This document shows positions 33,387 to 64,000 of a stretch of DNA of 64,000 nt, in pieces. The position numbers and the translations under genes were made by a program. The notes beneath the pieces were generated by a model. It did no database searches. It had not been told where the DNA came from and was given only the letters and a program-made list of their open reading frames with translations. Within the stretch, counting starts at the first letter, position 1; each line of letters begins with the position of its first letter. The stretch comes from Takakia lepidozioides (lineage: Eukaryota; Plantae; Bryophyta): assembly GCA_030704615.1 (NCBI GenBank), contig CM060732.1, forward strand, positions 11,160,001-11,224,000. Reading direction: 5' to 3'.

Positions 33387-33391
33387 CATTG

Positions 33392-33411
33392 GAGAGAGAG
33401 AGAGAGAGAGA
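33392..33411. repeat. (GA)n microsatellite at LINE insertion site
   Basis: gagagagagagagagagaga. Confidence 0.9.
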
Positions 33412-34632
33412 TGCGATGCCGCCAACCGAAGTTAGAGCCCTCCTTCCCTTGCGGATACGCCTTCCTTTCGGGGGTGGGCTCTAGGGAGCCATTGGAGACA
33501 GTATGACCGCTTCACAATCCACTTTCTCAGTCATGAAAGCGACGGGCGTGGACATTGCACATGTGAGTTCTACAGTGGGTTCTCATACTCGAGTGTCCAA
33601 GGATGGTCAGAAAACTGGCTTTCTACGTTTCTCCCCGACAACCGATGACCATTTACATAGCTTAACAAGGAGTCCAGCGAATTAACGTTCGAAACCGAAA
33701 TAAACTTGAATCCTTTTTACCTCGAAACAGGAGAGTGCACCTTCGAAGCTTGTCGGTCACTCTTAACGCCGTTCTTCCATCTGATGCAATCCAAGATGTT
33801 TAGAACGATGCCATCGATGGTCACAATGAAGGCCAAGTGAGAAAGTATGAAGGGCCCACCAAAAGAGTGCTTGCTTGCGCGCGAGCGATGAACACAACTC
33901 CTTGAAACACAACATAGAACCCCTCTCACCTGATAAATTTCATACTCACGTTGTCACTGAGAGCCTATTTCTCTTTGTCCTGGTGCGAAACCGCTGGAAC
34001 CTGATTCCAACATCAATTAGAGCTCTACCTTAGAACGCTAGCTTCTACTGCACTCCTATAAGATTCTTCTTTCTACTTGTAGAGCATTACGCACCGTGGC
34101 AGCTTCAGTGGCTCGGATTTCTCAACTCGAACGTCCAGCTTTACTGTAACGGTAGTACGCAGGCAGGGTAGCTTGTCAAATACTCAAAACCCTAAACTCT
34201 CCTGGAGGCTGGGAGCTCCACCTAGTCTAGTACTGTAACACTATGGGACAGCCATTGAGGTAGGATCCCTAAAGCTCGCCCCCGCCCCCCGACTAGGTCC
34301 TGACGGCCCAAAACGTATGATTGGAATTATGTGGCAAATGGAACTCGATATAGGTACGTAAATTCATTTTACTATTGGCTCCTCCCTGGAGAGGGCATGC
34401 CACCATTGTTTTTTCCTGATGTACCTTCCCCACTTAATACTTAACTATCAAGTTCCATCCCAGATGGTGAAACCATGTAAGACTTTATTTACAACATGTA
34501 CAATGGGTAAACGGGCATATGATGAGAAGTTCCGGGCGGGGGAGGGGGAGAGGAACGAGAAACAAGAGAAGAAAACAAAAGCTATAATAAACTACTCAAC
34601 CAGCGACGAAAATAGAAGCTATAGTAAGCTAT

Positions 34633-35003: not shown

Positions 35004-38000
35004 CTAGTGTGGTAGCTGCACGAGATAGCTCATCCCAGATTCATGACTCTCTGACTCTCTCTCTCTCTCTCGTTCGCTTGCTTTGTGTGTGTGCGTCAAA
35101 ATGATTGGTGGGTATTGAATGAGGGTTTGTGCTCGCCCCAATTCGTTATCACAAGAAAGGTTGGTCCCGTGTGTTTTTGCATGGTTGCTTTTTTTTCTGT
35201 TGTTTGGTGGGGAATATCCGATCCCCAGAACTCCCACCTCCATATTCACAGAAATCGTCCCTGGTGGGGGCAAGACCGCTAATAGCTCATGCTTTGGACA
35301 GAGAGCACCATAGCTTTGAAACATAGCAGTCATGAAATCCATCGAGACACTTTCCCAAGACCCCTCTGAAATCGACAAGGGGTTGTAACACCTCGCTTGC
35401 TTTTTTTTTTGTACTCACTGTCCGGTTTTGTTGGCATGTGGTGTATATCTTGACATACTCCTCGGCTTTTTCTTTGCCCTTAGTTGGGCCAGAAATACTT
35501 TTTTCTCGAAAGGATGCCGCGGTGCGCTTGGCTCCACCGTGGCCCACAAGCGGGCCCATCGTGGCATTCTCTCAAGAGACTATCTCTGATCCCCTCCCTT
35601 CGGCACATAGAGACGCTTTTGCTTGTACCGGAGCAGTCCATTTTGCAAGTGGAACTGCGATTTCACCCCATCCTCAAGTCCCGCATTACAGACTTCGTCA
35701 TCTCATATTTCCGGTCAGCCTTTCGGATCTTCCTTTGGAGCGTCGTCTTCGCCCTAATAATACCAGCATGAGCTGCTGCTTTCTTTACTTAAGGCATTGG
35801 CCACCACATTGTCCCGTCCCAGTTTGTACTGGATTATCTCTCGTCGAACACCGCTAAAGTATCTTGTCACCTAAGTGTTTTGGGGACAACTTTAGGCTGC
35901 TGGGCAAAATTACTTCACTGTGATATTGTCCGTGAATACCTTCACCAGGTTGAAACCAACATAGTGGCGCCAAAGCTCAAGGCATTGCACCACCCCACGC
36001 CTTCATCTCTTTGCTCCGTGGCGTTGGCCATCGTCGCTCCACTTCATTCAGTTTCTTATTTTCGTAAGCCACTAGACGTCCATCTTGCATGAGTACACCC
36101 CCAATCGCGAAGTCCGACGCATCTGTATGAATCTCAAACGGACAGTCGAACTCCGGGATTTTCAAGACGGGAGCTTTTTCCCGCCATCCGCTGCTTCAAC
36201 TCGGCAAAAGCTTGCCCCACAAAAAGGTTTTCCATACCCATACCTAGGATTTACACAGAAGGTCTGACAGCGGCCCCGCGATCTTGATAAAATTTCTGAC
36301 ATACTTTCGGTGATAGCAGGCCAGTCCTAGGAATGGTCGCATTCCTGGGACCGAAGTGGAAGGCTCCCAGTCCAAGATCGCCCTCTAACCTTTCTGTTCA
36401 TCGCATTTTTGATCCCATCCTGCGTAATCACATGCCCCAGGAACTCCACTTTTGTGACCCTGAATTCGTACTTTGAAGCTTTGGCACACAGCTTCCCTTC
36501 CCACAATTTCTGGAACAACCTTTTTGAAGTGTTCCAGGTGCTCTTCATGTTGTTTTCGAGTACACCAAGATGTTCGTCGATTGTACACGATCACAAGTCA
36601 TCCACCACTCTGGAAAGGCTTGTTCATTAGCGTACTAACGATTGCGGGAGTGTTGGTGAGCCCAAAAGACATCACCAAGAACTTATATGAACCATAACAA
36701 TGTCCTGCACGCGGTCTCTCTCAATCTCCTTCCGCCACTCTTAACTTTTTACCCTCTTCCACTCGATTTGGAAATGGTAGCCGGACGCAAAATCCGATCC
36801 GGCCTGAAATAAACTTCGCTCCAGCCAAACTCGATCGAAAAGGTCGTCGATCCTTGGCAAATGGACCAACCGGTTTTTTATAGATCACCTTAGTCAGAGC
36901 CCTGTAATCGACACATATATTCCGCAACGTCCCATTTTTCTTGTCTGCGAATAGCACCAAGGGGCTCCGTAAGGTGATTTACTCGGCCGGATGTACCCCT
37001 TTGACATTAGATCCTTGAGCTGAGTCTTCAGCTCGACCAACTCTTTGTGACTCAACTGGTAGGGCGCCTGGCAGGCGGCTATCCGACCCGGTGTTACCTC
37101 AATCTTGTGGTCAACTCCTCTTCAAACGGTAACAAGCCGCTTGGTAAATCCTCCGACATCACAAACATCTTTGTATTTCTCCAAGATCCCTTGATCCAAT
37201 CTGGGCTCGGCTCCCTATCGCCTTTTCCCTTCACTTGTCTTACGTAAAGCAAAAAAACTGAGGCTCGTGTGGCTCCTCCACGACCCACTTGCTGATAGCA
37301 GGTTTATTTTTTTATTAATTATGTCACCCTCCCACGGGGTTTGGGCGTTTTTTTCCGACACTCGTAAAATTTCGCCACCATTCCTACTCAGTAGCATGAC
37401 TACTTTCTTGCGGCCATCTATGACCGGTCCGGATTTGCTCAAAAAAATCATCCCCAAAATGAGATCCACTCCATCGATCTCGCAAATGGTGAAGTTCTCA
37501 CGTCCCTCCCAACTCCCCAGCTGAAGAGGAACATCGAACGCCAACCTCGTCGCCAATTGTGGTTTCTCTTTTTGCAGAACACACCTCAATAGAGGCCCCC
37601 ACAAATCACTTGTCGGGAGTCCAGCTTTTCGTGCCGTTGCGTGTGGTCATGAAAGGAGTGTGACGCTCCTATGTCCAACCAATAACGACATGTTAGTTCT
37701 AGAAATTGTCCTACTCACGAACAATAACTGAGTGCCTTTACGCAGGGGGGCCATTTTCTAATACAACTCACAAGAGTAGTTGCCTACCTTGCAACTCTTG
37801 GCAACCACCGCTTTCACCAAGCGGCTGATGGTATCTTCGGATAGCTCTGTGGTTGCCCGAGTCATGTTCAATTGACGGGGCTTCGTGCACTTCTTAGCCA
37901 TGTGCCCGGGCTCCCCGCAATTAAAATACACTCCATCGAAGGTTGCATTCTGTCCACCATAGGTCGTTGCACCTGCTTTTCCTTTTGGAGCACCTGGTGC

Positions 38001-39012
38001 CGCCTTAATGTGCAAAGCCTTCCTTCGATTTCTAGTGCCCCCATTGTCGCCACGTGGCCAATCCATTTTTTTTCTTTTCCGGTCGGAAGAGTCACCTTCC
38101 ACCGAGTTCTTCTTGTGGTTCAAGCTCCGATGGCCTTGTCTTTCGCCCCTAGGGACATCTGATAATATTTCAGCCCTTTCAATTGCCTTCGTTTCAAAGT
38201 CTTAGGTGGCTTCTCTCCTCCCAACTCCTTCCCCGTCTGGCCCATAAGGCCAGTCCCCCGCCATAAAGTTGAAGACCATTTTTGGTTCTGTCATCGAACA
38301 ATAACACATTGAAAGCCTGAACATATCCCCGAATGTCATCCGTTTGCTTCAACTTCCTCATCTTGTCTCGGGCGAGCCAGGACGCGTTGAGGGGCACAAC
38401 CAGTCTCTTTCATAAGTTGTTCCTTGAACCCACTCCAGTTCAAGGTTTCCAGTTTGGACTTTTTGGTCCCGTGAAAGCGTTTCTTCTTCCTGCCACCATT
38501 GTTGGGCATAGCCCCTCAAATAGGTGGGAGCCACTTCCCACCCGATCCTCGTCTCTCAAACCTGGCCCGCCCGGAAGTACGGCTCTAGCTCCCAAGAACC
38601 AGGTGTTGAGTGCATTCCAATTTCAGACACCCTCGAAGGTGTCCGGTTCCTTAAGCTTCACCTTAAACTTTGCCTTAGTGGAAGTGACATTAGCCGCCTT
38701 CAACACATCTTTCAACGTCCCGCCAAACTGTGCCAACAATCCTTCCCAAAAGGCTGCTGGCATGGGAGACATCTGTTGGTCTGGTGGCGCCTCGGGAAAA
38801 TCCTCGGGCCCCGACTCCCCAGATTCCTCCCGTTCTTGAGTGGCCTCGCTTTCAAAAGCATGAATCGCCTCCTCATATTAACCCGCTTCGGCGACACGTC
38901 GCCCCCTTCGGGCTCACCAGGATTTATCCTCTTTCCAGTCGTTCCGCTTTCATTTTGGCTTGCCACCCCATGATGAGGCCGACCTCAAGGAGCATCGCGT
39001 ACTGAACTCTAA

Positions 39013-39024
39013 GCTCTGATACCA
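39013..39024 (-). promoter_or_regulatory. Primer-binding site for initiator tRNA-Met
   Basis: Minus strand TGGTATCAGAGC, 2 nt from the LTR edge. Confidence 0.9.
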
Positions 39025-39026
39025 AG

Positions 39027-39780
39027 TGTCGTGCACCTCACTTCGGTAAGCTCCCCTTCAAGTCATAGTTACTTGCTTTGATGCACGTGCTAAACTCCCA
39101 AACTGCCCGCCGGGCCAATTCGAAGCTTCGGCTACTCACCGGGGCATAGCGGTCCCCCTTTACTACTCCACAAGACCTTCTATCATTTGGGGCCTAGTGG
39201 AAATTCCCTTTGATTGCTGGCAGTCCGGAACAGCTCCCCCACACACCTTGGTCGTTTTCCCGCTCTCGATTACTTGCTAGTTTTTGGTTCACCAATTGGC
39301 TTGCACCGGTTCTCGGGGTTACTATTTCTCTATATATACTTTTTGTGGACTGTCCGCCGGGGGTTTCAACAAACAATAGCATCCTTTTATGGCGAACCAC
39401 CACGAAAACCCTCGATTCCCGGTGATGAGTCGCGGGGAGTCTTGGCCCACCCACCACGGCCCTATTGGACCGTGATGAGTCCCAAGACTCCTCACGACTC
39501 CCACCACCAAGGGTCCCTTTCCGCCTCCATGGTGAGTCCCATGTCATCCCCACTAAGTCCCACTAAGCTACCACCACCGCAACCCAATGTGCAGGGCTCC
39601 ACCTAGTGAGCGCCTCCGCCTCCTTGAGTGCCTTGGGCCACTCAAGGGTGCTTCAGCCCCCGTATCTATTGTTATCACTGCCCCCACCACAGGGGTCGCC
39701 CCTTTTGTGTCCCGACCCCCCTGCCCTCAAGGTGAAGGGCCACGACAAGCAGAGTGGCGGCCGCGCTTTGTGTTGTGACA
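39027..39780 (-). repeat. 5' LTR (TG...CA) of the Gypsy element
   Basis: Begins tgtc at 39027 next to the PBS and ends gtgaca at 39780. No second LTR in the window to confirm the outer edge. Confidence 0.65.
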
Positions 39781-40210
39781 ACTACTTGCATTCATGTGGA
39801 GATTTGTTATCGCCTTTGCATTGATCCCAATCATCTTTCTTCCTCCTAATATATTTGTTCTCCCTCTTCCACATTGTCAACAAGCTTGAGAGGCGCCACC
39901 CTTGGCCGGGACTCGGAGGAAGCCGGCCTAACTAGCTAGTGGAGAGTAGAGTCAAGTGGGGGTTTGGTTCTTTGCCATGGGACGCCATGGTACGGAGACA
40001 AACTCCCTTTGATTGGGGACGCCACAACATTGATGTTCGTTTCTGCAAAATGTACAAATCGATGAGGACATCGACCCCTGTTAGTAGGGGTGCGTGTCGC
40101 GGCCCTTTGGGCAGAGCTCGGTACAATGTCCCGACTCATCACTTACAATTCACTCACTTGGCCTGTGCCGCCCCATGTGACCACTTGAGGAACTGGTGCG
40201 CATTGTGACA

Positions 40211-40582
40211 TAGGGTAAAACACCATATGACCGTTATAGTTCCTATGACCGTTCACCTCATAATTGCTTGGATCAGGCCTGCATGAGCCACCATTGCTGG
40301 GCCCAAGACTGCTCATTTTTGCCACTTGGCAAACAGTTGTTTGATTAAACCCCAAGAAATATGAGTGGTCATAGGACTTCACACAAGCATTCGGATTGGT
40401 TCAACTTTGAAAACCCATAACTTTGTGTGGATTTCATGAAATCATGCATTTCCAAATGTGTTGGGATGCCCTCAGATGTGGGCATCTTATCAATTTATCC
40501 CTTATCGGGGTAAAAAAGACAAAAATTCACCGGTAGATCTTCCGCCATCTTTAGATGAACGGTCATAGGGTGTTCTACCCTA
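40211..40582. mobile_element. MITE with 25-bp TIRs, probable TA target (Tc1/mariner-pogo-like)
   Basis: tagggtaaaacaccatatgaccgtt vs revcomp tagggtagaacaccctatgaccgtt (23/25). Confidence 0.8.
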
Positions 40583-41390
40583 AGGAGTAAATGCTCAGTC
40601 AACGACGAGCATCGAGGTCATGAGGTCATGAGGTTACATTCATGATGGGCTTCATCTTGCCAATGTTGAAATCAACTAAATTTTATGTTTCAGGCATATT
40701 TTTTTGTGAAGGGAATGCTTCTACGGAAGGCGTGAAAGCCTCTTTGACAGACGGCTCTTCCGGCGGACAACCAAAACCAATCAACCAAATTGTGATCCTC
40801 CATAGAGGCAATTCGGGTTATCAGGGAATGCACCAAAACGTCCCTAACAGTGGATCTAAATTCTCAACTCTGGGCACCGCCACTGCAGCCCCTGGAGAGA
40901 GACTGGGTCACCTGCACATCCTCACCCAACCTGGTCATATATTTACCATCTAACTTACCCAACCTGGCCAAATCCGGAGGGCTGCCACTCATCAAGTTTC
41001 AACTCTCAAGCACATATCCTTCACCTGGATTCGAAGCTGCTATGGTATCTGCAATCTCTAGTGGACAATTTACCCCCGTCAGGTTTTGCCAGCGGTCCTC
41101 AACAAACAAGTATGAAGTATGAACCCAATGGCGGCCGCTGATCAACCTCTGGAAGCCTGGCTCTCATTCCACCTTTCCCTCTGGGTTGAGGGGCAGTCCT
41201 TTAATGAGCTTTCAGTGGACCCAAAGGATCCTTGCGACTTTTCCTCAACGATTGCAAGTGCAATTGGTGACCCTGAATTCAAAACCCCCTCAGATGTCGT
41301 CACCATTTTCTCTCTGAAAGTACCGAAAAGAGCTCCACACCACTTCCTGCGCCACCCACACTCGACACCACTCGACCCGTTGTCAAAAGG

Positions 41391-41890
41391 ATTCAGTAAA
41401 ATGGGCCATTTCATTTCCACCAAGGAGACGGCAACGACACAGGAGACGTGACGACTTTACTTCGCCCACGTCTTCAAGCATCATGGACTCCCGAAGGATA
41501 TTGTCTCGGACCGCGATCCAAAGTTCACAAGTAAATTTTGGAGGGCACTCTGGAGGAAAATGGGGACGAGGCTCAAGATGAATACCGCTTTCCAACCTAC
41601 GACGGACGCCCAAACGGAAAGGGTGAATTTCGTGGTGAAACAGATTTTACGGAATTACGTGTCGGCAGACCAATCGGACTGGGTGGAGCACTTGGACGCG
41701 GCAGAGTTCTGTTATAATAACACAAAACACTCCGCAACGGGAGTTTCCCCTTTCGTATTGGTCTATGGAAAAGCACCTCTGGTGCCGTCAAGTTGGGCCG
41801 CCCAAGACATTGAAGAACCGGCAGCAGCAACGGTGCTGGAAGAACGCGAGCGTTTATTGAAGCTCGCAAAGTACAACATTGCCAAAGCTA
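41391..41890 (+). pseudogene. Isolated Ty3/Gypsy integrase core fragment
   Basis: FSKMGHFI, HGLPKDIVSDRDPKFTSKFW, QTERVN, AEFCYNN..HSATGVSPF. Confidence 0.85.
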
Positions 41891-42499
41891 GGCTAGTGTG
41901 TAGAATGCATGCTAGCTTACAAAGTGAGAGAGGTAAATTGGATTAATCGTGTGTTTGTGTAGTACCAAAATCGGGTGACTCCTATCCAAGGGGCAAGGAA
42001 ACTTGCACATTCGTTGGGAGTTCACGTGCTAGTGCGCACCTAGCGCGTGCGCGTACTATAACTGCGCTACCGAGAGGGTTGCCTTGTAGTGCGGGCTAAC
42101 GCGGAAACTACGTGCTTCCGTTCACGTACTATAATCGTGTAGCCTCAGGATGAAGTCATAGTGCGGCTTCGGTGTGTTCCCGTACCTCAGGCCAGCATTC
42201 CAAGGCAGACCCAATTGTAGTGATTGGGGCACACGGTTGGTTCAAGGTTATCTTCCTAGTCAAAAAAAGGTTCAAGACGAACCCTTGCTCAAGGTGATGC
42301 CAAAAGTGGCATCACGAGCGGTTACAAGCAAATGTTGTTGCAATAAGGCGATTTGATCATCGGGGAGGATCGTTCCTTGGCCCTAAAGTGGGCCAAGAAG
42401 AGTACACTGGGAGGGCTTGCACATTTTCTACACCACCTCGCGAAAGTTTAGGATTGGCTAGCTTTAGTGAGCAAATTGTCAATGAGATTGAACTTGAGA

Positions 42500-49034: not shown

Positions 49035-51444
49035 TCACCAGTAATCCTCACAAGAACAAACCCCATCTTGGAAGTGGTGGAAGCAGTTGGCATCCCGTAC
49101 AACAACTACTCGCCCAACAATCTTCGAGATGAACTTGATAGCTGAGTGACAGTCTCCACACACCCGGAGGTTCTTGATGATGCGGATGAGCGTCCCTGGG
49201 GGTGTGCTGATGAGCCCAAAAGCTATGGCCAGTTTTCTCACTATGGTGGGAGAGAGAAATTTTCTTATGGTCCTCCTCCTCATCATGCAACACAAAATGC
49301 GTGTCAGGGACATAGCCAGCCTCCTTCAGTTGGCCAGACAATATCTCCAGTTCAGCATGGATTTCCTCAATTTGTGGATGTAATTTATCTTCAGCAATGA
49401 ATGTATAAACCTGGTTGTCCACCTCAATGCTGCTGCACCCTGGCTCCTTTCTGACACCTCTGTCCTCCATCATTCTTCTCACCTTTGCTGTATCCTCCCA
49501 CCTGCCTCCTGCAGCATAGATGTTCGATAGCAGCACATATGTTGCAGTATCCTGTGGATCCAACTTGAGAAGGCACTGTGCTGCATGTTCTGCCACCTCC
49601 ACATCAGTATGAATGTTGCAGGCACCAAGCAAAGCCCCCCACACCGTAGCACCTACTTCGATTGGCATTTTGTTTATTAAATCCTGCGCCTCTTCCAGTC
49701 GTCCTGCACGGCCAAGAAGGTTCACCATGCAGCTATAGTGCTCCACTGTGGGAGTAAGGCCATAATCTCGGTTGATTGAATAAAAGAAGTGACAGCCTTC
49801 ATCCACCAGGCCCACATTGTTACAGGCAGAGAGAAGACATGTAAAGGTGACGCTGTTTGGCTTGAAGCCTTCCAGTTGCATTTGTTCAAATAGGTGTAGG
49901 GCCTCCATACCACGCCCATGTTGAGCATAACCTGCGATCAACACATTCCACGAGACCACATCACGTTTCGCCATTTTGTCAAACACGTTCCGTGCATCCT
50001 TCATGCTCCCGCATTTGGCATACATATTAACAAGGGTATTCTCCAGAATAATATCTGGCACAATTCTGCTTTTGTCGATGTCAGCGTGTACCTGTTTGCC
50101 TTTCCCCAGGGCAGCCAGGATGGCACAAGCGTTGAGAACACAAGTCAATGTCACCCTGTCAGGCATCACCCCTTCCAGTTGCATTTGTTCATACATCTGC
50201 AAAGCCTCCCTACCACACCCATGCTGAGTATATCCTGCCATCATCGCACTCCATGAGATCACATTTTGTTGTTCCATATTTCCAAACACTTGAACTGCAT
50301 CCTTCATGTTCCCACATTTTGCATACATGTTGACAAGGGCAGTCTCTAAAATGATATCCGGCACAATTCCAGCTTTTATGATGTCAGCATGTACCTCTTT
50401 TCCCTTTTCCACATCCGCTAGAATCGCACAAGCATTGAGAATACAAACAAACGTGACCCTGGTGGGCATCAGCCCATCCTGTATCATTTGCTCATAGGTT
50501 ATGAAAGCCTCCCTACCACACCCATGCTGGGCATATCCTGCAATCAACGCACTCCATGCAACCACATCTCTTTTAGCCATATTATCAAATACTTGCCGTG
50601 CATCCTTCATGCTCCCACATTTGGCATACATGTCGACAGTTGCAGTCTCCAAAATGATGTCTGGAGCAATTCCGGCTTTTATGATGTCAGCATGGACCTC
50701 TTTGCCTTTTTCCAGAGTTCCTAGGCTGGCACACGCCTTGAGAACGCAGATGAATGTGACCCTGTTGGGTGTCACCCATTCCTGTACCATCTGCTCATAG
50801 AGCTTCACAGCCTCGCTACCACACCCCTGCTTCACATATCCTGCCAACATTGTAGTCCATGTAAACACATCACGTGCAGGCATATTGTCAAACACTTGGC
50901 GTGCATCAACTACGCTCCCGTACTTGGCATACATGTTGACAAGAGTGTTGAGTAGAATGATTTTCGGCTTGAATCCATTTTGGATCATGTGAGCGTGCAC
51001 CTGCTTCCCCTCTGTTAAGCCTTTCATGTTGATGCACTCCTGTAAGAGAAAGCAATAAGTATTGGAATCTGCCACAACGCCTTGTTGGTTTAAAATGTGC
51101 AGAGCGTCTTTCGTTTGTCCTGCCTTCCATAATGTCCTCACATCCCCACATGTGACAGAAGAGTTCTTGGTGACTCCCTCTCTTGATCGCCACTCAATGG
51201 CAGTACTCCTGGTGGAGATGCCTGATCCAACCCTGCCATCCTGCGTGACTCTTTGGTTACAAACCTTTTCACACACACAGATTTCTCTCTTCGTTTGTAG
51301 TTCTTTTTCTCCAATCAAACTCCCGTAACATGCGTTGACCCTCCTACATAATTTATATATATCTTCATGAGGACATGCTCCTTGCACACATAGCAGGGTT
51401 GCAGAGCTACATCTACATTCTTTCAGTTGGGACCCTTCAATCAT
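49035..51444 (-). CDS. PLS-class PPR protein with E domains and DYW deaminase (organellar C-to-U editing factor); +1 frameshift after HSEK
   Basis: Repeated [22 protein letters not shown] motifs, PG box [12 protein letters not shown], then in another frame [25 protein letters not shown]. Confidence 0.93.
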
Positions 51445-52263
51445 CACCCTCTTATATTATGGGATACAAATTCTGCTTGACCTTGCATCATGGCAGATAG
51501 CTCTGCTTTCACCCAAGCAGGGTTCAATCCAAAGGGCCTCAATTGCACGCTAAGATTTGGAGTCTTGTGATCTTAGATTTCTCTCTGAAAGTGACCACTA
51601 GGCAGCTGAGTAAATACGCTTCAGAAACGGCGTCCCCCTGACCAAGTAAAGCTTCACACATATGCCAAATGACAGAACAGCCTTGAACCACCTACTTTCT
51701 GAACAGCCGACAAATAGCAACAGTAGAACTGCTTTTGCTGTATTTGTGCACTAAACAGAAAGCTGTCACTAATTTCAGAAAACAGTCCATAAAATGTTGT
51801 CATGCTAACATCAGTCACAAGCGCTAGTTGATAGACACTTTAAAGTCCTAATTCAAGACAGGTTGTCCCCTCACAGCAAAGGATCTGAGAAGAACTCCTG
51901 CCAGAGCAGTTCTTTGCTGAATCCTTGGCCAGTGTGCAAGAACTACGCGGAAGTGAGCCCTTAGACCGGTTCCTATTGCCTCGTCTCTTTGCACCATGCG
52001 AGTTATCTACAGACTATGCCCTCAAGAGTTTCCCACAGCCAACGTTAGCAGGGGAATGTTCAGTAGCAGATCTCCCCCTGCCTTTAATATCCAGTAGGTG
52101 ACTGCCGATTGTCGCTCTGCAGCAATATGTGTCAAATCTGTGCTACTTAGCCCTCTACATTAAAGGGGGAGCTCAACATGCTTGCAAGTTCACTTGCGGC
52201 GGAATTTCGATGGGCTAGGCGACCCTGAGGACAAACTCCTCAGTGACGGGCAGGCCTAATCGA

Positions 52264-52289: not shown

Positions 52290-54091
52290 ACCGTATGCAA
52301 AAGAAAATCAAAGTGTCACTTGAGCAGATATTGAAGAAGCTGATGGAACGAGAAGAATGTCGAATGCACTTCCTGTCTCACCATAATGCGGGCAAGTTTC
52401 TGCCGGGATGGCTCAAGGAGCCAACGCACAACTAGCCGACCAAGAAAACGACACCAAAGATGAACACGCTATACCTTTCTTGGGTCTCCCTGGAGGCTGG
52501 GGAGGGGTCACAGCCATGACTCGCAAGGGTCCGACGCCCGGCATTGCCGAGCTGCATATATAATTCTCCTCCAGGCGCGATAATCTGCAGCATGATGCAA
52601 GGCTTCCCAGCCGTTCAGTAAAAGGAGAGGCCATACCCAAGGTTGTGTGCATGGCCTCTCCCTACGTGCTCACCACACCTCCGCCCCCTCCGCCATCATC
52701 CTGCAGCTCTAAACCTTGAGTCTAGATCCGTGCTGAAACAACACACACTGCAGGGTGGATGGTGCCATCGCTGGGCTCAGCGAGCATGCAGCCCTTGAAG
52801 CTTCCAAGGTTGCTCACTGATGGATGGGCAGACTCTGATGACGATTTTGGGTACCTACCTAGCTACAGTAAACTGCTCGCACCAACCTACCAAGATTCAC
52901 CCAAGTGAAGATAAAACAAGTAGCAATGCTAATAGCTACCCCTTTTTCTTCCGTGAGGCTCAACAGAGAGATGGGCTTTTGATTTCTCTTTCCTAAAATA
53001 CCACAGTGTCTCTAAAGATAGAAGGATGCCAGACCAGTTACATGACCATGCTTCCAGCGTTGCACAGCGGCCGCCAACTTCTAGACTTAAGTGGAAGAAC
53101 CAGTTGCATATACCAATAAAAGATTTAATAGTTTATCTTTATATTTTAATCATTTTTTAGTTATTTTTAGTATTCATTTTTTAGTCATAACCTAAATTTA
53201 TTAGAATCATTAAAAAAGAAATCTAGAATTTGGAGCAGAGCGCGATGTAGGAGCTCCGTGGTTTGCGGTGAGAGTGAGCCCCCAACGGTCTCTTCGTCTC
53301 CCTCCCAGGCCTCTCCATCGCTTACATCGGCTACCTCCCTATCGTTTGGGGGAAAAACCAATAGCATAACCCAAACCTCAGGAGCTTCTGCTACGTTGGA
53401 TACTAACTTTATTGATAACTTCTCAGTCCGGATCACAGAAATTCAAGTTTCCCATTTTGCAAGCCCACCATCATCACCTCTTCATCCTGGATCTCTCTCT
53501 TAACTCTCCCACAAGTAAGCGGCGCATTCCATCCGTATTGGGATTCCAAATCCCCTATAGTCGCTGTCAACTTCATGACGCTTAACTTCGCCTCTGCCAC
53601 CTAGTCGAGCCCCCCAGTGGCCGAAACCAGCTACCCCAAAACCCCTCCACACTCTCACTATCACTTCTCACCCACTCTCTAAGTCATCCAGTCTCAGCTC
53701 TTATCTCTCCAAACTCTATTCACTGCCCCCACTGCGAACAGTCTTGTTTTCGTGTCTTCTTCTTAACTCTCCTTCCTAAGTTTCTCTTCTCCCTGATATG
53801 GGTCCTCTCAATGCCGTGTAGCGCCGTCGCAACTCCAACTCCTGGAAACGGTGCCATCCAGGCCCATCCAAAACCCCGCTGATCACCCGACCCCAGCCAT
53901 CCTCAGGAACAGGATTCTTCCTGGCCCACCAGGCTCAGGCGATCCTTCCACATCAGCTCTAGGCCAGGAGGTCGGACCCCCCCATGCTCGCGTCACACCA
54001 TCTATAGACCAGGTGGCCGGGAACCCCCGTATGCGAGATACAGCCCGCACATCAGCAAGTACAAGCTCGTCAGGGGGAAATTGCTCCAACC

Positions 54092-55404
54092 ATGGACAAC
54101 ACACCCCTGGACGAACATGCCTTTCTGTTGAAAGAAGATTTGGAAGAACAGGAGGCGATGGCATTCGAATGGGATCTTATCTCCATGAATGTACCTCAGA
54201 TGCGCAAGAGAGTGGTATCTCTGGAAGAAATAGGCATCCTGGCCCACTTTCCAGGGAGAAAAGTTGGCCGAGCATATGTCCGAGACTGGGCAACTCGCCA
54301 CTTTGGGGGAGCTGGGGGGGTTTTTTTTCAATTGCATTTGAAAACCAGGCAGCTGCAGCACAAGCCCTCAATTTTAATCCTCACCTATATGGGTTCAACG
54401 TCAATATCTTCCCTTGGTCATCCAACATGGGCAACCGGAATGGCAAACTGTGGGGACCAAGAATTGTATCAGTCCCATTCATTTTAGATCAATATCTACC
54501 CAACCTCCCTGATATAGCCAACCACTTTGGGTTTTATCTGGGCTGCATCTCAGTATTTGACCCCTTCATGTGTATGGACAATATCAGGAGCGATCCGGCT
54601 TGGAGAGCCACCACCATTGCCTCAAGAGTGAATGACTCGGGTAGTGCAAAATTTATTTTAATGATGCCCAATGAGGCTGTCCTTCCGCCCTATGTCAGGC
54701 TATCAATTGATGATGAAGGTAACTACTTCACCATCAAGCTTATTGAGGATACATCATCACAAGTGTGCTTCAACTGTGGAAAGTTGGGCCACATCAAAGC
54801 ACAATGCAAAGCACAGAAAAGGAGAAGATCCGGTGTCAAAAACCATCATACAACCCCCCAATCGGCCAACAGGTATGATGCAAACACACCACCAAGGCAG
54901 TTTGCAAGCTTTGTAAGGAGGGAACAACCAAAGGGCCTCACCCCAACTGATCTGCTGCAAATGCATGGGCTTGCCGAGGAGGAAGCAACGCAACCCAAAA
55001 GCACCAGCCCCTTACCCAGAGTAAACAAAAATCTAAGACAACATAATGATCCTATGCGAGCGGAAGCATCACCAAAAAAGGCTTCTTGGAACTCCAAAGG
55101 GAAATGGATCCCAATGCAGAATGCACTGCCTTCTCCAACTCCACCTCTGGCGGACACAGGTATTCTCCCCAACGTGCCTCCGCCAAAAACCATAATCCTC
55201 ACTGGGATTGCCAGCCACTCCGCAATTGCAAAAAAAATCAGAGGTATCAAATCCTTCCCACACCTCGTTCTTAATTGCTCATCTGCAATCAACACAGATG
55301 ACATCCCCAAGGCCTCATGCATAACCCCGTTAGTGTTCAGGAAAGGACCCCCACAGTCCCTTCTTGTCACAGAATCGGCATGGGAGGATTTTGCTTCCTT
55401 GTGA
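54092..55404 (+). pseudogene. L1 ORF1 (gag-like, zinc knuckle), frameshift near 54320
   Basis: CFNCGKLGHIKAQC, preceded by an RRM-like GFFSIAFEN segment. Confidence 0.7.
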
Positions 55405-56531
55405 ATTACTGTTCAGGACGTTCACAACTTCATTGTCAATTGTCCACCCAGCACATGTCCAGAAAATATGCTCAGAAAGAAAATTCAGGACTTCTTGCTG
55501 GTTTTCCTACCGCACTATCACCTAGCAAGGACCACAAAAGTATTCTGGGACTCCTTTCTGGAAAACTTCCCTGGGCTCAGTTGCAACCCAGCAGTGCATA
55601 TCCTCGCTTTGTTAGAGGAAGCTGACATTTACCTCAACCCGCCACCCACGGGGGCAATCTGGGTCAAGAAAAGTATCATGGCAGAGCCAAGAGGGGCCAC
55701 CAGACTCAAACCCAGATTCAGGGACACACTCGCAAATGCATTATCCATCCTTGAGGCCATCATGGAAGCGGATATTGATGAAGAAAACCACAGAGGAGAC
55801 CTGCAGAGAACAAGAGACCACTTGTAAGGTGTACAAGTGCAGTTGACATCCTCCTCATCGAGTGTTTCGAGAAGTTCGGACTGCCCAAAAGAGGCCGCAT
55901 AGGATCAGGAGCTATCTGCCAACGCAATTCAGGGACTCACTAGTCAGCCCCAACTTTCTTCAGACAATTCTCCACAGGAAGGATCAACCCAGGGATAGCA
56001 CGCACCTCTATCTGGCCCATCTTCGGAGGAACAATGCAACACATTGGGCCAGGTTTTTCTTCCTCCCGCTCCCTGTTTTATCTTCTACCTAGACAGACTC
56101 AATTCCAAAAGATGTTGGTTGCTTTGTTGCAAGGGAGTTAAACAGGCTTGCAAGAAAATCCCAACAATTTCTTTGCCTCAAATGCTAGCTTTACCTTATA
56201 CACATGTCTCTAGTCCTGAATCTCCCACACCACCACTTCAGTTACATCCGCCCGCAGAATTCCTACAAAAAGCAGGCAGTCTTATTTCTATCTCAGCTCT
56301 CCAGCCAAACCAAGGCCAATTTACTACCACAATCCCGCCAAATCTTATTCACACTGTCGTCATGGTGATGATAAAAAAATAAACCCCCAAGCCTCCCACT
56401 GGTTTTCAATGGGTAAACATCCTACTCCCCACAGACAAAAGGGTCAAATTCTATTTTGATCACCCTGGGCCATCAAATGTGAGTAATACCTAGCCCTAGA
56501 AGTCCCTCTTCATGTTGATTAACCTGGACTC

Positions 56532-59500
56532 TTGGAATATTCGGGGTCTGGCCAGGGGCCAGACTCCCTTAAAAGAATCAGGCTTCGATCCTGGCTCAGC
56601 CCTATGCTGCAGCAAGACGCCATAGTAGCCATTCAAGAACATAAACTAAACACACCCAAAATCTTAGAACTCTCAAATCACTTGTGGCCCAAAACTCTAT
56701 CTCTTTGGAAACCCACGTCGGTGGGCTGTAGGGGAGGTATTGCCATCCTCCTATCTCCCTCCATCCACGCTCTCATGGTCTTAGAAGATTTATGGATCCC
56801 AGGAAGAGCTCAATTTTGTGCTATCAACCTCCCAAACAATGCAGGCTCCATAGGAATAGTCAACATCTACGCCCCCAACTCAACTGTGGATAGGACTGAT
56901 TTCTGGTCGGCTATAGACAATAAAATGAAAGACAAGCCGTACCTAGATAGCTGGATCTTGATGGGAGATTTCAATATGGTCGAAACCCTTCAAGATCGCA
57001 GGGGACCTTCCTCATCAAACCCATCCCAGGCAGAGACAGACTCGTGGAACTCCCTTCACCAAAACCATAACCTTACCAAAGCCATCACCTCCTCTCACCC
57101 CAACTCCAACCGCCCCGCATTTACCTGGACAAACAACAGATCGCTCAATCACTTACAAATGGCCAGGCTAGACAGATTCTACACATCTCTAAATCTAGCT
57201 CAATGGATCTCCAGAAACCCTCAGGCTCCGATTCAACTAGGTTTTGACCACGCCCTAGTTTCAGCATCCCTCAACATCCCTAACACTCAGGCTAGAGGAA
57301 GAGGCATTTTTAAACTGAACTCCTCCTTGCTTAAACTCACCTCCTTCAAACAAGGCCTTGTACAAGCATGGTCTCAAGCAGGCATGCTTGCCAGAGACCC
57401 AACCTCGAAATTCGAAGCCAAGCTCAAAGCCACATCCAATGCTGCTCAAGATATGAGCAAAGTATTGGCCCTGGCCCGCTCCCGGAAAATCAAAGCCTGG
57501 ACAAAATGCCTTTCTGCTTGTCAAGCTAGAATAGAATCCCCCAGATGTGATCTGCATACACACATGACCTATCTAGAAGCCAAACAAAACCTCGAAAACT
57601 TGCAATCAACTTTAGACCAAAAACTTAAACTTCAAGCGGGCATCAACTGGTCTACAAAGGGTGAGAAGATGACAAAATACTTCTTTGACAAAACAAAGCT
57701 TCGTAGATCATCCCAAAACATCACTGAACTGATCGACCAAACCTCAGGTGAGGTAGCCTTTGATCCCAAACAACTAGCAAGAATGGCAGAAAGACACCTT
57801 CAGTCCCTTTTCTACAGCAGTTCTGAGGGAGACACGACTCTATCTCATCATCAACTAGACTGCTTGTTAAAAACTCCCACTATCTTTTCCGGAGACCTGG
57901 CAGCTACTCTGGAAAGACCATTCACAGAAAAGGAGCTGGAGATAGCCCTCTCCAAGATGCACAATGGAAAATCGCCAGGGCTGGACGGACTCCCTGTGGA
58001 GTTCTACAAAAGCCTTTGGAAAGAAATTGCCAAAGACTTTCTCTCCATGGCAAATCACATCTTTGAGATAGGTCAGATGCCCGCCTCCATGTCCCAGGGG
58101 ATGGTGACTCTCATCTTCAAGAAAGGGGACCGTACCAACTTATCTAACTACCGCCCCATCACCCTTCTCAACGTGGCTTACAAGATCATAGCCAAAGCAC
58201 TGGCGCTACGTCTACAACCACTGCTGCCCAAACTAATTAGGCCAAACCAAACCAGTTTCATTAAGGGTCGCTACATCATGGACAACCTGCTCTTGGCTCA
58301 AGAGGCGCCACTCTTCGCTCATAAAACTGACCAAACCATTGCTTTGTTGCTCCTAAAATTCGAGAAAGCCTTTGATAGGGTGGAATGGTCATACCTATTA
58401 GGGACCCTTACCGAGATAGGCCTTCCAGACTCGTTCTGTCAGTGGGTACGCATTTTGTTGGCAAATTCCTCCAGCAGGGTCATTGTCAACGGGCAACTAT
58501 CCAAACCATTCTCTCTTTATAGGTCGGTCAGGCAAGGCTGCCCCCTTGCTCTTTTCCTTTTCCTTTTCGTGGCAGATTCCCTAGGATATTTGCTAGAAAA
58601 CAACCATGACATCCTGGGACTCCAAGTCTCTAACTATCATACACAACAGCCTGCACAAATCAAAGACTCCATGTTTGTTGTTGACACTCTTCTAATTCTG
58701 GATGCAACCACAGCAAACCTCAATACCACATCAGAAACTCTGGAATCATTTTGTCAAGCTTCAGGGTTCAAAGTCAACTGGACCAAAACATGCGCAATCC
58801 TGGCGGGGAATACAGCATCATCCTCAATAGGCACCATCCCTTCATGGGGTGCCCATCTAGGCCTGTCATGTCTGCAGCCTAGTCAATCAACAACATACCT
58901 AGGATACACATTTGGAATCGATCTAACAGATGAGCAACGCTTTGCTCCAACTCTGACGAAGCTAAAGAAGAAACTTGCCTTCTGTGGGTCAAAACACCTC
59001 TTCCTAATAGGCAGAGTTCTGGCTGCCAACCAGATTCACTCGGCTGGAATATGGTTTTTCTCTTCATCATGGAGGCCCAATCCATCCCAAACCAAACAGA
59101 TCAGAGCTCTCCTTAGGAACTTTGTCTAGGGGGCCAAAGACTCACACTCAAATCGCAAAAGACCCCAAGTATCTTGGAAGCAAATATGCCTCCCCAAAAA
59201 ACTAGGGGGCCTGGGCCTAATCGATCCAAACACACAAATCACGGCCCTACTTGGTAAATGGTTACCACGCTTCTTCAGCCCAGAAGGGGGATGGTGGAAA
59301 TTCCTGGTGGCAGGGAATATTCAAACCTCCTCGCCTCTCAGACACTGTTTATGGAACCCGTCCTTTCGCTGGGTGACACAAGGTTTCAAACATAAAACGG
59401 CTGGTTCCTCTCTATGGTCAACCATCTGGCATGCTTGGGCAAGGCTGAGACCTTTCCTTAAAAAATCTGAACCGCTATCCTATGACGAAACCATGAGGCA

Positions 59501-60083
59501 ACATTTATTTCTAAACAGCAAGATGCCATCTCAAGCGCAACGAACCCAGGCAAAAAGATGGTCTTCTTGGGACAGAGATGGGGTCACTCAAGTCAAAGAC
59601 ATCTGGCTCAATCACTCATTCAAGGACCATACATCCATAGCTCTCAAAATTGGAATGGCGAGAGCTGCGAAGGGCTATCAGGCTGTCCAAGACTCTATGC
59701 CATCTTCCTGGCTAGCAATTTTGCAATCTGGAGGCTCATCTCCCAACACTAACTTCTGGACTCTGGGAATTGTGAACAACACACTCTCGGTCTTCTTCAT
59801 TCAGGATAGAATGCAAAATGCCCTACTTGGATTTCCATTTTCAATCAACCCAGTGACAATGATTCTATCCCTTCAAAGCCAAACCCCGTTACATATCCCT
59901 TTGTTCATTCATACACCAATAAGAGTTTGTTACTGGTCCTCAAACTCAAAAGATATGAACCCGGACCCAGACCCGGCTATGCCCATTTACACCTGGCTGG
60001 CGTGTTCCACCTTCCTCTGGGTTCTGGGAAGACCTCTGGCATATCTGCAATTCGACCCCCAAGGAATGGAGCTGGTCATTTAA
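56532..60083 (+). pseudogene. L1 ORF2 (AP endonuclease plus RT), catalytic motifs mutated, stop at 59127-59129
   Basis: AIQEHK, NIYAPN, MGDFN, ARLDRFY, FDH; KSPGLDG, NYRPITLL, SVRQGCPL. MFVVDT replaces YADD and LKFEKAFD replaces LDFEKAFD. Confidence 0.9.
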
Positions 60084-60118: not shown

Positions 60119-60729
60119 GGTGATCTATCAAGGCTTGCTCACACAAAACCTGAAACTCCCCCAAGAACTCTCTCCCCTGGTCCGTGAGTACCTCGGCTGG
60201 AGTACCAAATTGGCTAAGCACTCGATCTAAGAATGCGTACGCAGCCCCCTCACTTGCCTTGTCAGGCAATGCCACCAGTTCAATCCATTTGGAGAAATGT
60301 TCCACCATCACCAGCACATATTTGTTATGGCGAATCGTTAGTGGCAATGGGCCTGCAAAGTCAAGACTCCAACGATAGCCCAAACCTATAATCGGTAAAG
60401 GATGTAATTGTAGAGTAGGTGCATTGAAAGAAGCCCGCACTCTATCACACACCATGCACCTTGCCACTAACTGTTGGCCTACCTTCGTACTAAAGAGACA
60501 ACAGCCAGTGTGACTGCTAAGGAGAGAGATCGGATCCTACAACGAGCCAAGAGGTTCAAGTGGGAGGGGACTCACCTACTCCGAGTATGGGAGGATGGAC
60601 GAGTGAGGATTGTGCCTCATCCAACACAACGAGTGCGATTGGTACGCCATGCCCATGAGGAGTTGGGACATTTTGGGGTGCGGCGCTTTCATAGTTTGTT
60701 GCAAGGACATTATTGGTGGCGGGGCATGC
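60119..60729 (-). pseudogene. Gypsy integrase with internally inverted zinc-binding segment
   Basis: Minus strand: CMVC, WSLDFAGP, VEHFSKW, VLTDQGREF. Plus strand 60474-60729: HEELGHFG..YWWRGM. Confidence 0.88.
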
Positions 60730-62300
60730 TTCATATACATCTTTAGCACCACCAAGCTCCTCACTGATCTCTGGATCGTCATGCACACTATCTCTATGAC
60801 CAATCGCATGGGATGGACCAGCTTGAGCTCCCATTGCTAGAATGCATAAAAATGTAGATGCATGCCATCCTGGCACCATCTCCTCGTCCGTCTCACCATG
60901 CCAACGAGCTCCTATATCATCAAGCTCACTTGTGCATGGATTGCGACTCAATCCATCTGCATCCCGGTTGTCTATTCCGGCTCGATGCACCACCTGGAAG
61001 TCGTACTCTTGAAGCATAAGTGCCCACCATGCAAGCTTCCCTGTAAGCTTGTCTGACTCCATCAACCACTTCAATGGTTGGTGATCCGTGACAAAGGTGA
61101 AGAGATTACCATAGAGGTAGCATCTAAAATGTACCACTGCCCATACTGCAGCTAGACGGTCCCCTTCATATGAACTATACTTCGCCTCGGCATCATTGTT
61201 CGAGTGGCTAGCATATGCCACTACGAACTATCTTCCCTCATCATCCACATGTGTGAGCAGTGCTCCAATCCCCAACATACTCCAATCCGTATGTAGCTGG
61301 AAAAACTGCCTCCGAATAGGCCGCCTCAGTATAGGCGCAGAAGTCAATCGAGCCTTGAGTTCCTCAAAGGCTTCCTCCTGCTCTTCCTCCCACTGCCACT
61401 CCTGACCCACCTTGGTCAACTTGGTAAGAGCCTTTGCAATGCTGCTAAATCCCTTGACAAACCGTCGATAGTAGTTTGCCAACCACATGAAAGCACGAAC
61501 TTTGCTAATATCGATGTGGCATGGAGTGCGTGCAATGGCCTCCACCTTCGTCTTTTGAACACCCAATCCTCCAGGGTATATCATGTGGCCTTGATACTCA
61601 ATATGGTTGTGGAAGAACTTGCATTTCCCAGGGTGCAATTTCAACCCATACGCTCTCAAGCGCTCAAACACCATCTGAAAGTGTTTCTCGTGCTCCTCAA
61701 TCGTAGCACTAAAGATGATGATGTCATCAATGTAGCACCGGGCGAAGTCTAGCCCCGCAAGAATCCTATCCATGACCCTCTAAAACTTTGCAGGAGCATT
61801 CTTCAACCCAAACGGTAGGAACCGCCATTGGTACAAACAATCCTTCCCATGTTGGTCAATCCCCCAGAATACCGTCTTTTGCTTGTCAGCCTCTTTGATT
61901 GGCAACTGGTGGTAACCGGATCGCAAGTCCAATGTGCTAAACACCTTTGCATGCCCAATGGCATCAAAGATCTCCTCTGGAGTTGGCATGGCATATCTAT
62001 CGGACTTAGTCTGACGGTTCATAGGACGGTAGTCCCCACACATCCTCCTTTCTGTCCAATTGCCATAGATATCCTTCTTAGCTGGCACCGTTGCCGAGGC
62101 ATACTCCCCGCTTGACAACTCCACCAATCCAGCTTCGAACAACTCCATAGTCCGTGACTGGATCAAAGACCTCTCCATATCACTATACTTGTAGGGCGTT
62201 CGAAAAATTGGCGTGTCACTTGCCAAATCAATTCGAATCTCCTGGCCTTTCAAACTCCCCAAATCCTTCAAACCGAAGGCAAAGTAATTTCTATAAGCCC
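60730..62300 (-). pseudogene. Gypsy reverse transcriptase plus RNase H
   Basis: RMCGDYRPMN, STLDLRSGYHQ, LPFGLKNAP, YIDDIII, LHTDWS, TDHQPL. One frame broken only by stops. Confidence 0.93.
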
Positions 62301-62809
62301 TTAGAAATCGCTGGATCCTCCGCCTCTCTCCTCCGGTGACTATAGGTCCAACATCTGGTTCCCAGCTGTCCTTAGTGACTGCAACCTTGGGTACACCAAG
62401 CTTGGAAGTAGGAGACGCATCCTTTGGTTGCTAGATAGCAACCTCTTGGGCTTTATCCGCCTACCCTGACCGTGGCGTAGCCTCTACTTGCTCCGCCATA
62501 GCCACCTTGAGAACATCCTCTGGGGAAGAAACGTTCTCAACCTCTTCAAAAACATTGGCTACCTTGGCCTCCAACTGATTATCAGTGTATGGCTTTCCCC
62601 ACTCCTCATACTGCTGCTTGAGAGATCCAATGACTCTCTCTCTTTGCGCATCTCATCCCACTTCTGCCATGGGTGTTTGCACCCCATGATCCTGTGCTCG
62701 CCCCCACTTACTGCCTCCACCGTCCCGGTTGGCAGAGATGGTGCAATATCCAATGGAAGTGCAGAAGTAGCCACCAATGCTTGCAATCTCCGTTGCTCAG
62801 CCATGCACA

Positions 62810-63723
62810 AGCCAATGACCCATATCAAGCAATTGAGATCCATTGCCTGACCCAACACCTGGCGTCGTGATGTCTCTTACAGAGCTGACACAGCTGTAGT
62901 GCCCCTGGCAAATCCCATTGCCCGCTCTCGCTCATCCGCATTGGGCTCCACCAATTGCTATAGCACACTGTCCCAAATCAACCCAGGACCATTGTCTCGA
63001 AAAGCATGAGACAAAGGAAAGCTCATGAGCGTAGGCAAGGCTGTACGTGGCTACCCTACTCGATTTACCACTCCCTCTGTGGTTGCCTCCCTTGGTCCAA
63101 AATGCCCTCAACTGTGAGATTGGGGGGCCGTTGAATGGAATCGTATGCTCTCTTGAGCAGCTCTGGTGGTGCAAGATTGGTCCACCACAATCGAGGTTGA
63201 TGCGCTCGTGATCCCACCGCTGCTGCATCCAATAGCACCGCCAATCCAATCCAAGACCGCACCTAATGCACATTGGCCATAACCCTGGCCCGAGAGTCCC
63301 CCATAAGAGGAACATTCTCCAAGATATAGGCTAGAGGTTGCACTTGTCTCGTCTGCAAGTCACGCAACACTCTCAACATCTCAAATGCGATCGTGCATCA
63401 TGCAAGCCATTCCCATGACCTGCGAGAGAGTGTCCTTGGCAAGGCCATCCAGCTATCACCAAGTCAATGGCACCATGTCGGTCCAAATCATCTGCCCCCA
63501 GCAAGGTAATGTCTACTAGCAAGGCCTTTTGATACCCTTGAATTGATGAGAGAGACAACAACTCATGATACCGGTGTGTGAGCAAGGCGATGTGGCGCAT
63601 AGAAATACGTCGAGCTATCTCATCCTTCTCCACATACAAGTACTTGCGTACTTTAATCCCAGCTTGCAACAGTCCTGCAAGCCCAGTGCTCATGCCTCCA
63701 AACAGATCTAGCAAACAAATCCT
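62810..63723 (-). pseudogene. DNMT3-like C5-cytosine methyltransferase domain inside the retrotransposon pol region
   Basis: Motif I LLDLFGG; II YVEKD; IV DLVIAGWPCQ (63436-63444); VI YILENV (63311-63319); VIII DAAAVGSRAHQPRLWWTN; IX ERERAMGF; X RRQVLGQAMDL. Two frameshifts and several stops. Confidence 0.92.
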
Positions 63724-64000
63724 TGAGTCAGATGGTTGCCAGGTAATGGGCACTGTGTCCAAAGGAGCTAACTGAGGAGGTCCAGGTGATGTCACTGAAC
63801 TCCCCTCACTCATCAATGGAAAGACCTCCTGCCATGCTTGGTGCACACTCTCGCCTGCTACTCGCTGCAAATTCCCAACCGTACCCCACAGTGGAATATG
63901 CACAGGCACATGAGGAAGCAACTCAGCCTTGTATGCCAGTTGCTTGTCCTCATCAGGTGGTGGCCTATCATCTGCATGGCTATTGCCCTCCAAGAGCTCA

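Follow-up and report, generated by a model that had tools for sequence, protein, structure and literature searches.

A DNMT3-like cytosine methyltransferase ahead of a conserved in-frame stop codon in a land-plant Ty3/Gypsy retrotransposon family

The stretch of DNA analysed here (the window) comprises 64,000 nucleotides of Takakia lepidozioides (assembly GCA_030704615.1, contig CM060732.1, positions 11,160,001 to 11,224,000). Positions 60119-64000 of its minus strand are a decayed copy of a Ty3/Gypsy retrotransposon, in which a cytosine methyltransferase (MTase) of the DNMT3 fold lies ahead of reverse transcriptase (RT), RNase H (RH) and integrase (INT). The original prediction, made from the letters of the window, placed this enzyme within pol. 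The MTase is not simply a pol domain: it closes a frame encoding Gag, protease (PR) and MTase, and a single in-frame UAG stands between it and RT, RH and an INT that ends in a PHD finger. The element family is real, old and widespread, and a one-off capture is ruled out. On balance we favour a streptophyte Ty3/Gypsy lineage in which a Gag-PR-MTase frame is followed by a leaky conserved UAG and by RT-RH and PHD-tipped INT, and in which the MTase would be packed like Gag and would likely methylate the cDNA.

Results

A conserved stop separates the MTase from RT

The stop was compared across metagenome loci (L numbers), which are the best 80 of 197 confirmed among 373 candidates. The MTase end and the RT start were in frame in 27 of the 42 loci that had both, and 22 of 24 aligned linkers shared the stop column. 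The stop lay exactly 56 codons upstream of the RT start in 35 of the 43 loci with an RT start. Among 30 distinct stop sites, 20 were TAG and 10 were TAA, and CAAC came next in every one (30/30). The stop of the window, located by host-run variants and locus comparison, reads TAG CAA CCA in its context (62425-62433, minus strand). Two DNA runs of the host showed no variant at or above 15% at 62433-62425 under high cover, and the neighbouring stop at 62461-62463 varied in nearly all of their depth. The stop at 62433 is family-wide and is not a product of decay, a point missed by the original prediction.

The intact copy L085, whose MTase is about 50% identical to that of Marchantia, consists of two open frames of 1162+ and 1047 amino acids, and their sole join is TAG CAA TCA. 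Across five lineages (the window, L085, L011, L007 and L076), 7 of the 9 signal bases were identical, compared with 4 of 96 flanking bases; the flanks could not be aligned. UAG CAR YYA with a continuous downstream frame was present in the window, L011, L076 and L085. This sequence is the type I readthrough signal (PMC11166343, in the text available), and all three stops are decoded within that context in plants according to the accessible part of PMC2754532. Database records fit the same division. Open Gag-PR-MTase proteins of about 1,230-1,450 amino acids end about 70-140 residues past the domain, and RT-RH-INT-PHD proteins of about 1,030-1,140 amino acids occur as separate records.

The MTase N-terminus was correctly predicted to share the frame of RT and RH, with shifts that sum to zero. 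The single ancestral polyprotein proposed on that basis holds as one ancestral frame. It does not hold as one open DNMT-RT-RH-INT frame, for the conserved UAG lies between MTase and RT and puts the MTase in the Gag-protease product; a longer polyprotein would need readthrough. We consider it likely that such readthrough of the conserved UAG takes place. Because the UAG context matches the tobamovirus signal, the MTase is likely a Gag-level product.

Separate production of RT-RH-INT, whether from a spliced RNA, an internal promoter or ribosomes that reinitiate at an AUG close by, is unlikely. In its favour, an in-frame AUG follows the stop at codon 3 in the largest locus subfamily and at codon 5 in L059, which carries two consecutive stops. 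The main subfamily also has T-rich bases ending in TAG before the stop, which resemble a splice acceptor. Ogre elements are spliced between protease and RT. Reinitiation at an AUG cannot serve the window or L085, because no in-frame AUG precedes the RT start in either and the first Met (codon 85 in the window, codon 117 in L085) sits inside RT. Splicing is opposed by TAA in 10 of 30 copies, with the highest G-to-A rate of 57 comparable sites, a change that an AG acceptor should forbid in active lineages. The conservation 3' of the stop and the maintained frame likewise speak against separate production. Two runs that may be RNA yielded 0 and 1 contig at the stop junction, too few to inform.

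Several observations count against readthrough, the AUG at codon 3 and the double stop of L059 among them. The largest locus subfamily reads CAA CCC (28/30), with the final base off CAR YYA, and the strict motif was in frame in just 4 of 43 loci. L085 has strong RNA structure 3' of the stop (z -4.4), and strong structure there was looked for and not found in the window and L011. The 80 loci contain near-duplicates and so are not independent cases. Finally, 20 of 314 MTase-bearing proteins join MTase and RT in one frame, some of them clearly stop-free, so the stop is not universal.

The domain is DNMT3-like and under purifying selection

The MTase domain of the window copy (62787-63723, minus strand) was identified by its motifs, by PF00145 and by 64-70% identity to relatives. 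All motifs named in the original prediction are present on the minus strand in linear order: DLFGG at 63708, YVEKD at 63636, GWPCQG at 63450, LENVP at 63322, DAAAVGSRAH at 63229, RLWWTN at 63193, ERERAMGF at 62933 and RRQVLG at 62867. The set is less complete than was claimed, as this copy has Gln in place of the first motif VIII Arg. The proposed profile search gave PF00145 above the cut-off at 63376-63999 (E 9e-6), followed downstream by RVT_1, RT_RNaseH and rve.

The assignment to DNMT3 rather than DRM was borne out. With a profile of 16 domains, the top PDB match was human DNMT3A/B (E 8e-24), ahead of DRM (2e-14) and then of DNMT2 and HhaI. A model of the Marchantia domain reached a pLDDT of 91.5 and its leading fold matches were all DNMT3A/B/C, so that by structure prediction the element enzyme has the DNMT3 fold. 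The ESM Atlas search gave PF00145 clusters only. The domain is intronless, lies in the coding region of the element, and keeps its catalytic residues in the family. DRM was rejected, as the motifs run linearly from I to X and are not permuted. A stand-alone host DNMT3 gene was also rejected, since none of the 24 homologues scanned contained DUF3444.

Selection was assessed by the ratio of nonsynonymous to synonymous substitution (dN/dS). The MTase gave 0.17 over 27 between-subfamily pairs, with 115 more pairs saturated and outside the 27 used; integrase gave 0.12 and protease 0.30. This indicates that the MTase module is under purifying selection.

A non-catalytic role of the domain, for example in binding DNA or RNA within the particle, is very improbable. 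Among 200 element domains that share 35-70% identity, the catalytic Cys and the motif VI Glu were each kept in 197 and the two motif VIII Arg in 190 and 193. What favours such a role also weighs against our preferred reading. In yeast, no methylation by the Klebsormidium domain was seen, an outcome that the authors call inconclusive (PMC5890265, in the text available). There was no clear extra CpG loss: CpG content was 0.52-0.62 in the window copy, less depleted than in neighbouring long interspersed nuclear elements (LINEs; 0.37-0.40), and it was 0.78 in intact L085 and 0.28 in L011. Self-methylation gains no support from CpG content. Within the decayed main subfamily, MTase dN/dS was 0.54-0.61, looser than that of RT (0.29-0.42).

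The family occurs in many loci and species

Marchantia, Calypogeia, Sphagnum, Closterium and metagenome loci all contain the MTase module. The N-terminal MTase piece of the window retrieved 24 longer homologues; the named ones come from Marchantia polymorpha and Calypogeia fissa, and most of the 24 are built as Gag-zinc knuckle-protease-MTase. Loci on long enough contigs showed the order gag-PR-MTase-RT-RH-INT. Among 1.84 billion representatives, a sequence search found 246 clusters at E<=1e-30. In host run X1, the summed contig depth was about 76,000-158,000 over the MTase versus 250-1,100 over the adjoining LINE, which is a crude sign of high copy number and not a copy count.

The 314 MTase-bearing proteins included 167 with RH-MTase-INT, 50 with PR-MTase ending soon past the domain and 77 that were partial. 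An MTase tree was built with FastTree from 202 domains after a 75% redundancy filter; no host plant DNMT3 and no named K. nitens MTase were among them. The window grouped with Marchantia, Calypogeia, Sphagnum fallax and close loci (support 0.99; 64-70% identity). This group fell within 56 sequences in which the MTase precedes RT (0.89), beside 144 of the RH-MTase-INT type (0.70). In an RT-RH tree of 131 of 245 sequences, in which several nodes were weak, Coleochaete, Closterium and Klebsormidium joined successively, followed by a chlorophyte clade. K. nitens RT-RH proteins were in the same RT lineage as the window family with moderate support. The predicted kinship with Klebsormidium elements was upheld by this placement, by the common repeat layout and by the DNMT3 domain.

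In the larger sister clade (P0033, P0155, P0200 and their kin; 167 of the 314 proteins), the MTase lies between RNase H and integrase. The named members are the chlorophytes Chromochloris and Hariotina, and in many MTases of the clade Glu replaces Pro ahead of the catalytic Cys.

We leave a negligible probability to a one-off capture of a host DNMT3 or a chance neighbourhood of an MTase and a Gypsy fragment. Capture draws some room from the tree, which included no host plant DNMT3 sequence. Against this, the same order recurs across many loci and species, and the MTase sits inside the terminal repeats of relatives with target duplications. DUF3444, which plant host DNMT3s carry, is absent from the homologues, and human DNMT3A came at E 8e-24 in the profile comparison, far more distant than the 150 best matches in the search of representatives (E 4e-42 or lower).

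Scans of virus collections gave phage-type MTases only, or no match. Phage contigs L082-L084 encode short MTases of DNMT3-like type, with 27-29% identity in the search; by sequence they are possible relatives of the donor. L082-L084 served as outgroups and L081 was left out. The record that contains the intact eukaryote-type element L085/L086 bears the label of a cyanobacterial metagenome assembly, in which the element is most likely a binning contaminant.

Relatives have split repeats, a DDE integrase and a PHD finger

The element ends were studied in relatives, since those of the window copy are outside the window. Repeats were arranged as A-coding-B-A-B in L026, L033, L058, L061, L070, L073 and L077, and in L086 B was repeated at 468 bp. 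The relatives start with TGTCATG and finish with CA. A 4-bp target duplication was exact in four of the five loci displayed and had one mismatch in the fifth. All 15 rows had a G-tract ahead of the first B. In the rows displayed, no TGG/tRNA primer site was found directly after the 5' A repeat.

The inner B-A join consists of CA, two bases and TG, and reads CA-GC-TG in L008, L033, L061, L085 and L086. This arrangement raises the idea, for which the balance is about even, that the internal CA-GC-TG junction templates both ends, with integrase cutting after CA. Self-priming through an inverted repeat at the A end was dropped, as a second subfamily is without that repeat. Six loci (L006, L013, L016, L017, L030 and L032) stop at the first B (A-coding-B), three of them with target duplications; such copies would have arisen either by B-B recombination or by integration from the internal junction.

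The D-35-E spacing of integrase was found in 63 of 73 long ORF2 proteins. The C-terminus of integrase in relatives is a PHD finger (PF00628), nearest to the fingers of CHD4, KMT2C/D, KDM5 PHD1, DPF3 and PHF21A. Several PHD fingers of that set bind the unmodified H3 tail. It is an evenly balanced proposition that the finger steers integration to chromatin with unmodified H3 tails.

The family thus has the Gag-PR-RT-RH-INT order and the Ty3-type RT of Ty3/Gypsy (Metaviridae), and its relatives have the DDE integrase, the TG...CA ends and a target duplication within the 4-6 bp range. In place of two full long terminal repeats (LTRs) and a tRNA primer site, split repeats were found. A DIRS or tyrosine-recombinase element was rejected because of the rve integrase and the target duplications. 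Troyka was rejected as well: the available text of PMC12440569 describes CG...CG ends, a 3-bp duplication and animal hosts only, and the present family has TG...CA ends and a 4-bp duplication.

The window copy is dead

Gag, protease and the 5' repeat of the window copy lie beyond the window end. The copy enters at 63724-64000 (minus strand) with the end of the ORF1 linker between protease and MTase, which aligns with the intact Gag-PR-MTase protein P0304 from residue 825 on. The MTase domain that follows is broken by small deletions near 63381 and 63073 and by four in-frame stops, in addition to the Gln of motif VIII; these lesions are missing from many contigs of the host DNA runs. Its reading is spread across three frames. 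The shift sites are lesions of the window copy, because many host-run contigs differ from the window at two of them and have loose ends at the third. The C-terminal tail of ORF1 (62434-62786, minus strand), defined by host-run contigs and linker alignment, has a copy-specific small insertion near 62634 and the copy-specific stop at 62461-62463.

Beyond the conserved stop, RT and RNase H (60838-62424, minus strand; YIDD at 61734) were assigned by Pfam and are 73% identical to the intact ORF2 protein P0513, for which the first-ranked PDB match was Ty3 Gag-Pol (E 3e-100). Two in-frame stops, at 61782 and 61230, interrupt them. The integrase zinc-binding (H2C2) segment (60471-60728; PF17921) lies on the plus strand, and host contigs have opposite-strand joints at 60470-60476 and 60729, which fit an inversion. 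The integrase core (60119-60476, minus strand; rve) keeps the first two catalytic Asp and is cut at 60119, where contigs have loose ends. The remaining integrase, the PHD finger and the 3' repeats had no match anywhere in the window. The inversion and the cut had not been noticed in the original prediction, which rightly described the copy as decayed. The stops in MTase, RT and RNase H, the Gln for Arg, the inverted integrase piece and the cut at 60119 make it dead.

An L1-type LINE (53797-60083, plus strand), with a zinc-knuckle ORF1 and an endonuclease-RT ORF2, stops 36 bases short of the point where the Gypsy copy is cut. No poly-A tail was seen in it.

Other features of the window

Fragments of a second, distant Gypsy element lie at 36000-41946, with a zinc knuckle and RT-RH on the minus strand and an integrase piece on the plus strand; no MTase match was found in them. 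Another LINE RT is present in two copies that are 98.6% identical and in opposite orientations (30964-33480, minus; 1-2164, plus). A 5.7-kb inverted duplication (9753-15460 and 17672-23377; 99.7% identity) surrounds a SWIM-domain frame, and each arm contains a fragment of a Ulp1-type protease. It is likely a Mutator-like element or a fold-back, and it may be an assembly artefact. A PPR gene at 49048-51456 (minus) carries E, E+ and the beginning of a DYW domain. An MLKL-like N-terminal domain with a kinase lies at 25339-27030 (plus), with an 89% identical copy near 4572-6036. The PPR and kinase genes together are the mark of a land-plant host, and the range of the element's relatives suggests a non-flowering one.

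Discussion

Proposed action of the MTase

We propose the following course. Most ribosomes would halt at the UAG and yield Gag-PR-MTase, with the enzyme made at the level of Gag. A few would read through the UAG and so extend the product by RT, RNase H and INT-PHD. Inside the particle, where the cDNA forms, the MTase would be plentiful, and it would most simply act on new element cDNA. That the protease of the element frees the MTase and that the MTase is present in the particle seems to us probable. That cDNA is its substrate is a guess with even chances; marking of the cDNA or the insertion site, the function suggested in the original prediction, is still a proposal.

The MTase could act in trans, on host chromatin or integrated copies, and thereby limit the element itself or silence competitors. 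Synthesis at the level of Gag would far exceed the enzyme need of one cDNA, and the PHD finger shows that the lineage engages chromatin; models of host benefit were raised in the accessible text of PMC5890265. We believe that action in trans is improbable. Here the domain is part of the polyprotein that forms the particle, in the sister clade it stands between RNase H and integrase, and the PHD finger belongs to integrase, past the stop, and not to the MTase.

A wider picture can be drawn only tentatively, and we doubt that all of it will hold. The lineage would be green-plant-wide, and each particle would receive many active de novo MTases through a tobamovirus-type leaky stop. The cDNA would be methylated before integration, and the PHD finger would target insertion. 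The ends would be rebuilt from the CA-GC-TG junction cut by integrase and not from two LTRs. The MTase would have shifted between the Gag side (streptophytes) and the Pol side (chlorophytes), altering its dose, and many uncounted copies would exist in Marchantia.

The question why transposons bear an enzyme that normally silences them dates from 2018, and it has persisted partly because the hosts known so far are difficult to handle. The presence of the family in Marchantia polymorpha makes this question testable in a genetic model. The conserved stop yields a concrete prediction of enzyme dose. Split-repeat ends combined with a DDE integrase suggest a replication route that is likely overlooked by programs built to find LTRs, and this may be why the family is unannotated.

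Comparison with known elements

As the original prediction supposed, no well-characterised land-plant family was met. The literature search, to which most subscription papers and Repbase were out of reach, gave no land-plant account and none of the stop. A description of a land-plant element is absent from the available text of PMC5009743, PMC6673714, bioRxiv 10.1101/2021.11.30.470311, PMC5784723, PMC10952607 and PMC12440569. Later papers, in the parts accessible, cite a "streptophyte" Gypsy-DNMT3 and name no land plant. The main text of a plant LTR survey (PMC6317226) is silent on methyltransferase, PHD and Marchantia. The list of five DNA methyltransferases published for Marchantia polymorpha omits the element copies in the text available (PMC5784723).

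The nearest known element is KnitGypsy-Dnmt3 of Klebsormidium nitens, which in the accessible text of de Mendoza et al. 2018 has A-coding-B-A-B repeats and an MTase in the Pol frame with RT (PMC5890265). Both have Ty3/Gypsy enzymes, an intronless, non-permuted DNMT3-like domain, purifying selection and the DIRS-like A-coding-B-A-B repeats. The window family differs in its land-plant host and in the conserved UAG, which places its MTase on the Gag-protease side, although some relatives do have one open frame. The PHD finger, the 4-bp duplication, the G-tract and the CA-GC-TG junction are not in the text on KnitGypsy-Dnmt3, whose figures or supplements may show the domain order or a PHD finger.

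SymbioDIRS-Dnmt3, SymbioLINE-Dnmt (PMC5890265) and EpiLTRs (bioRxiv 10.64898/2026.05.21.726589) are likewise retroelements with a C5 methyltransferase, and de novo CG methylation in yeast was obtained with domains of SymbioDIRS-Dnmt3, a dinoflagellate element (PMC5890265). As far as the accessible text describes them, they differ in having tyrosine recombinase or LINE machinery, or a DNMT4-related enzyme with DAM and a chromodomain, and represent separate captures. Plant host DNMT3 (PpDNMT3a/b) has the same DNMT3-type domain and linear motifs, but it carries a C-terminal DUF3444, which none of the window-family homologues scanned has (PMC6453930, available text).

With regard to the stop, the family resembles the type I readthrough of tobamoviruses, as the available text of PMC11166343 and PMC2754532 describes it, in that four of the five lineages compared have UAG CAA YYA. 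In-frame gag-pol stops are known in the fission-yeast elements Tj1 and Tosmo, where, similarly, the proportion of structural to enzymatic product is governed by one in-frame stop (bioRxiv 10.1101/2022.12.06.519325, accessible text). Their signal is UGA CU, and the stop of the window family comes after protease and MTase, not after Gag alone. Chromoviruses and PHD-bearing retrotransposons also have a chromatin reader on the integrase C-terminus (PMC6673714 and bioRxiv 10.1101/2021.11.30.470311, available text). Unlike chromoviruses, the window family has a PHD finger in place of a chromodomain, coupled with a writer of DNA methylation. Set beside these systems, what is new is the land-plant range with named model hosts, the readthrough-type stop, the two MTase positions and the anatomy of the ends.

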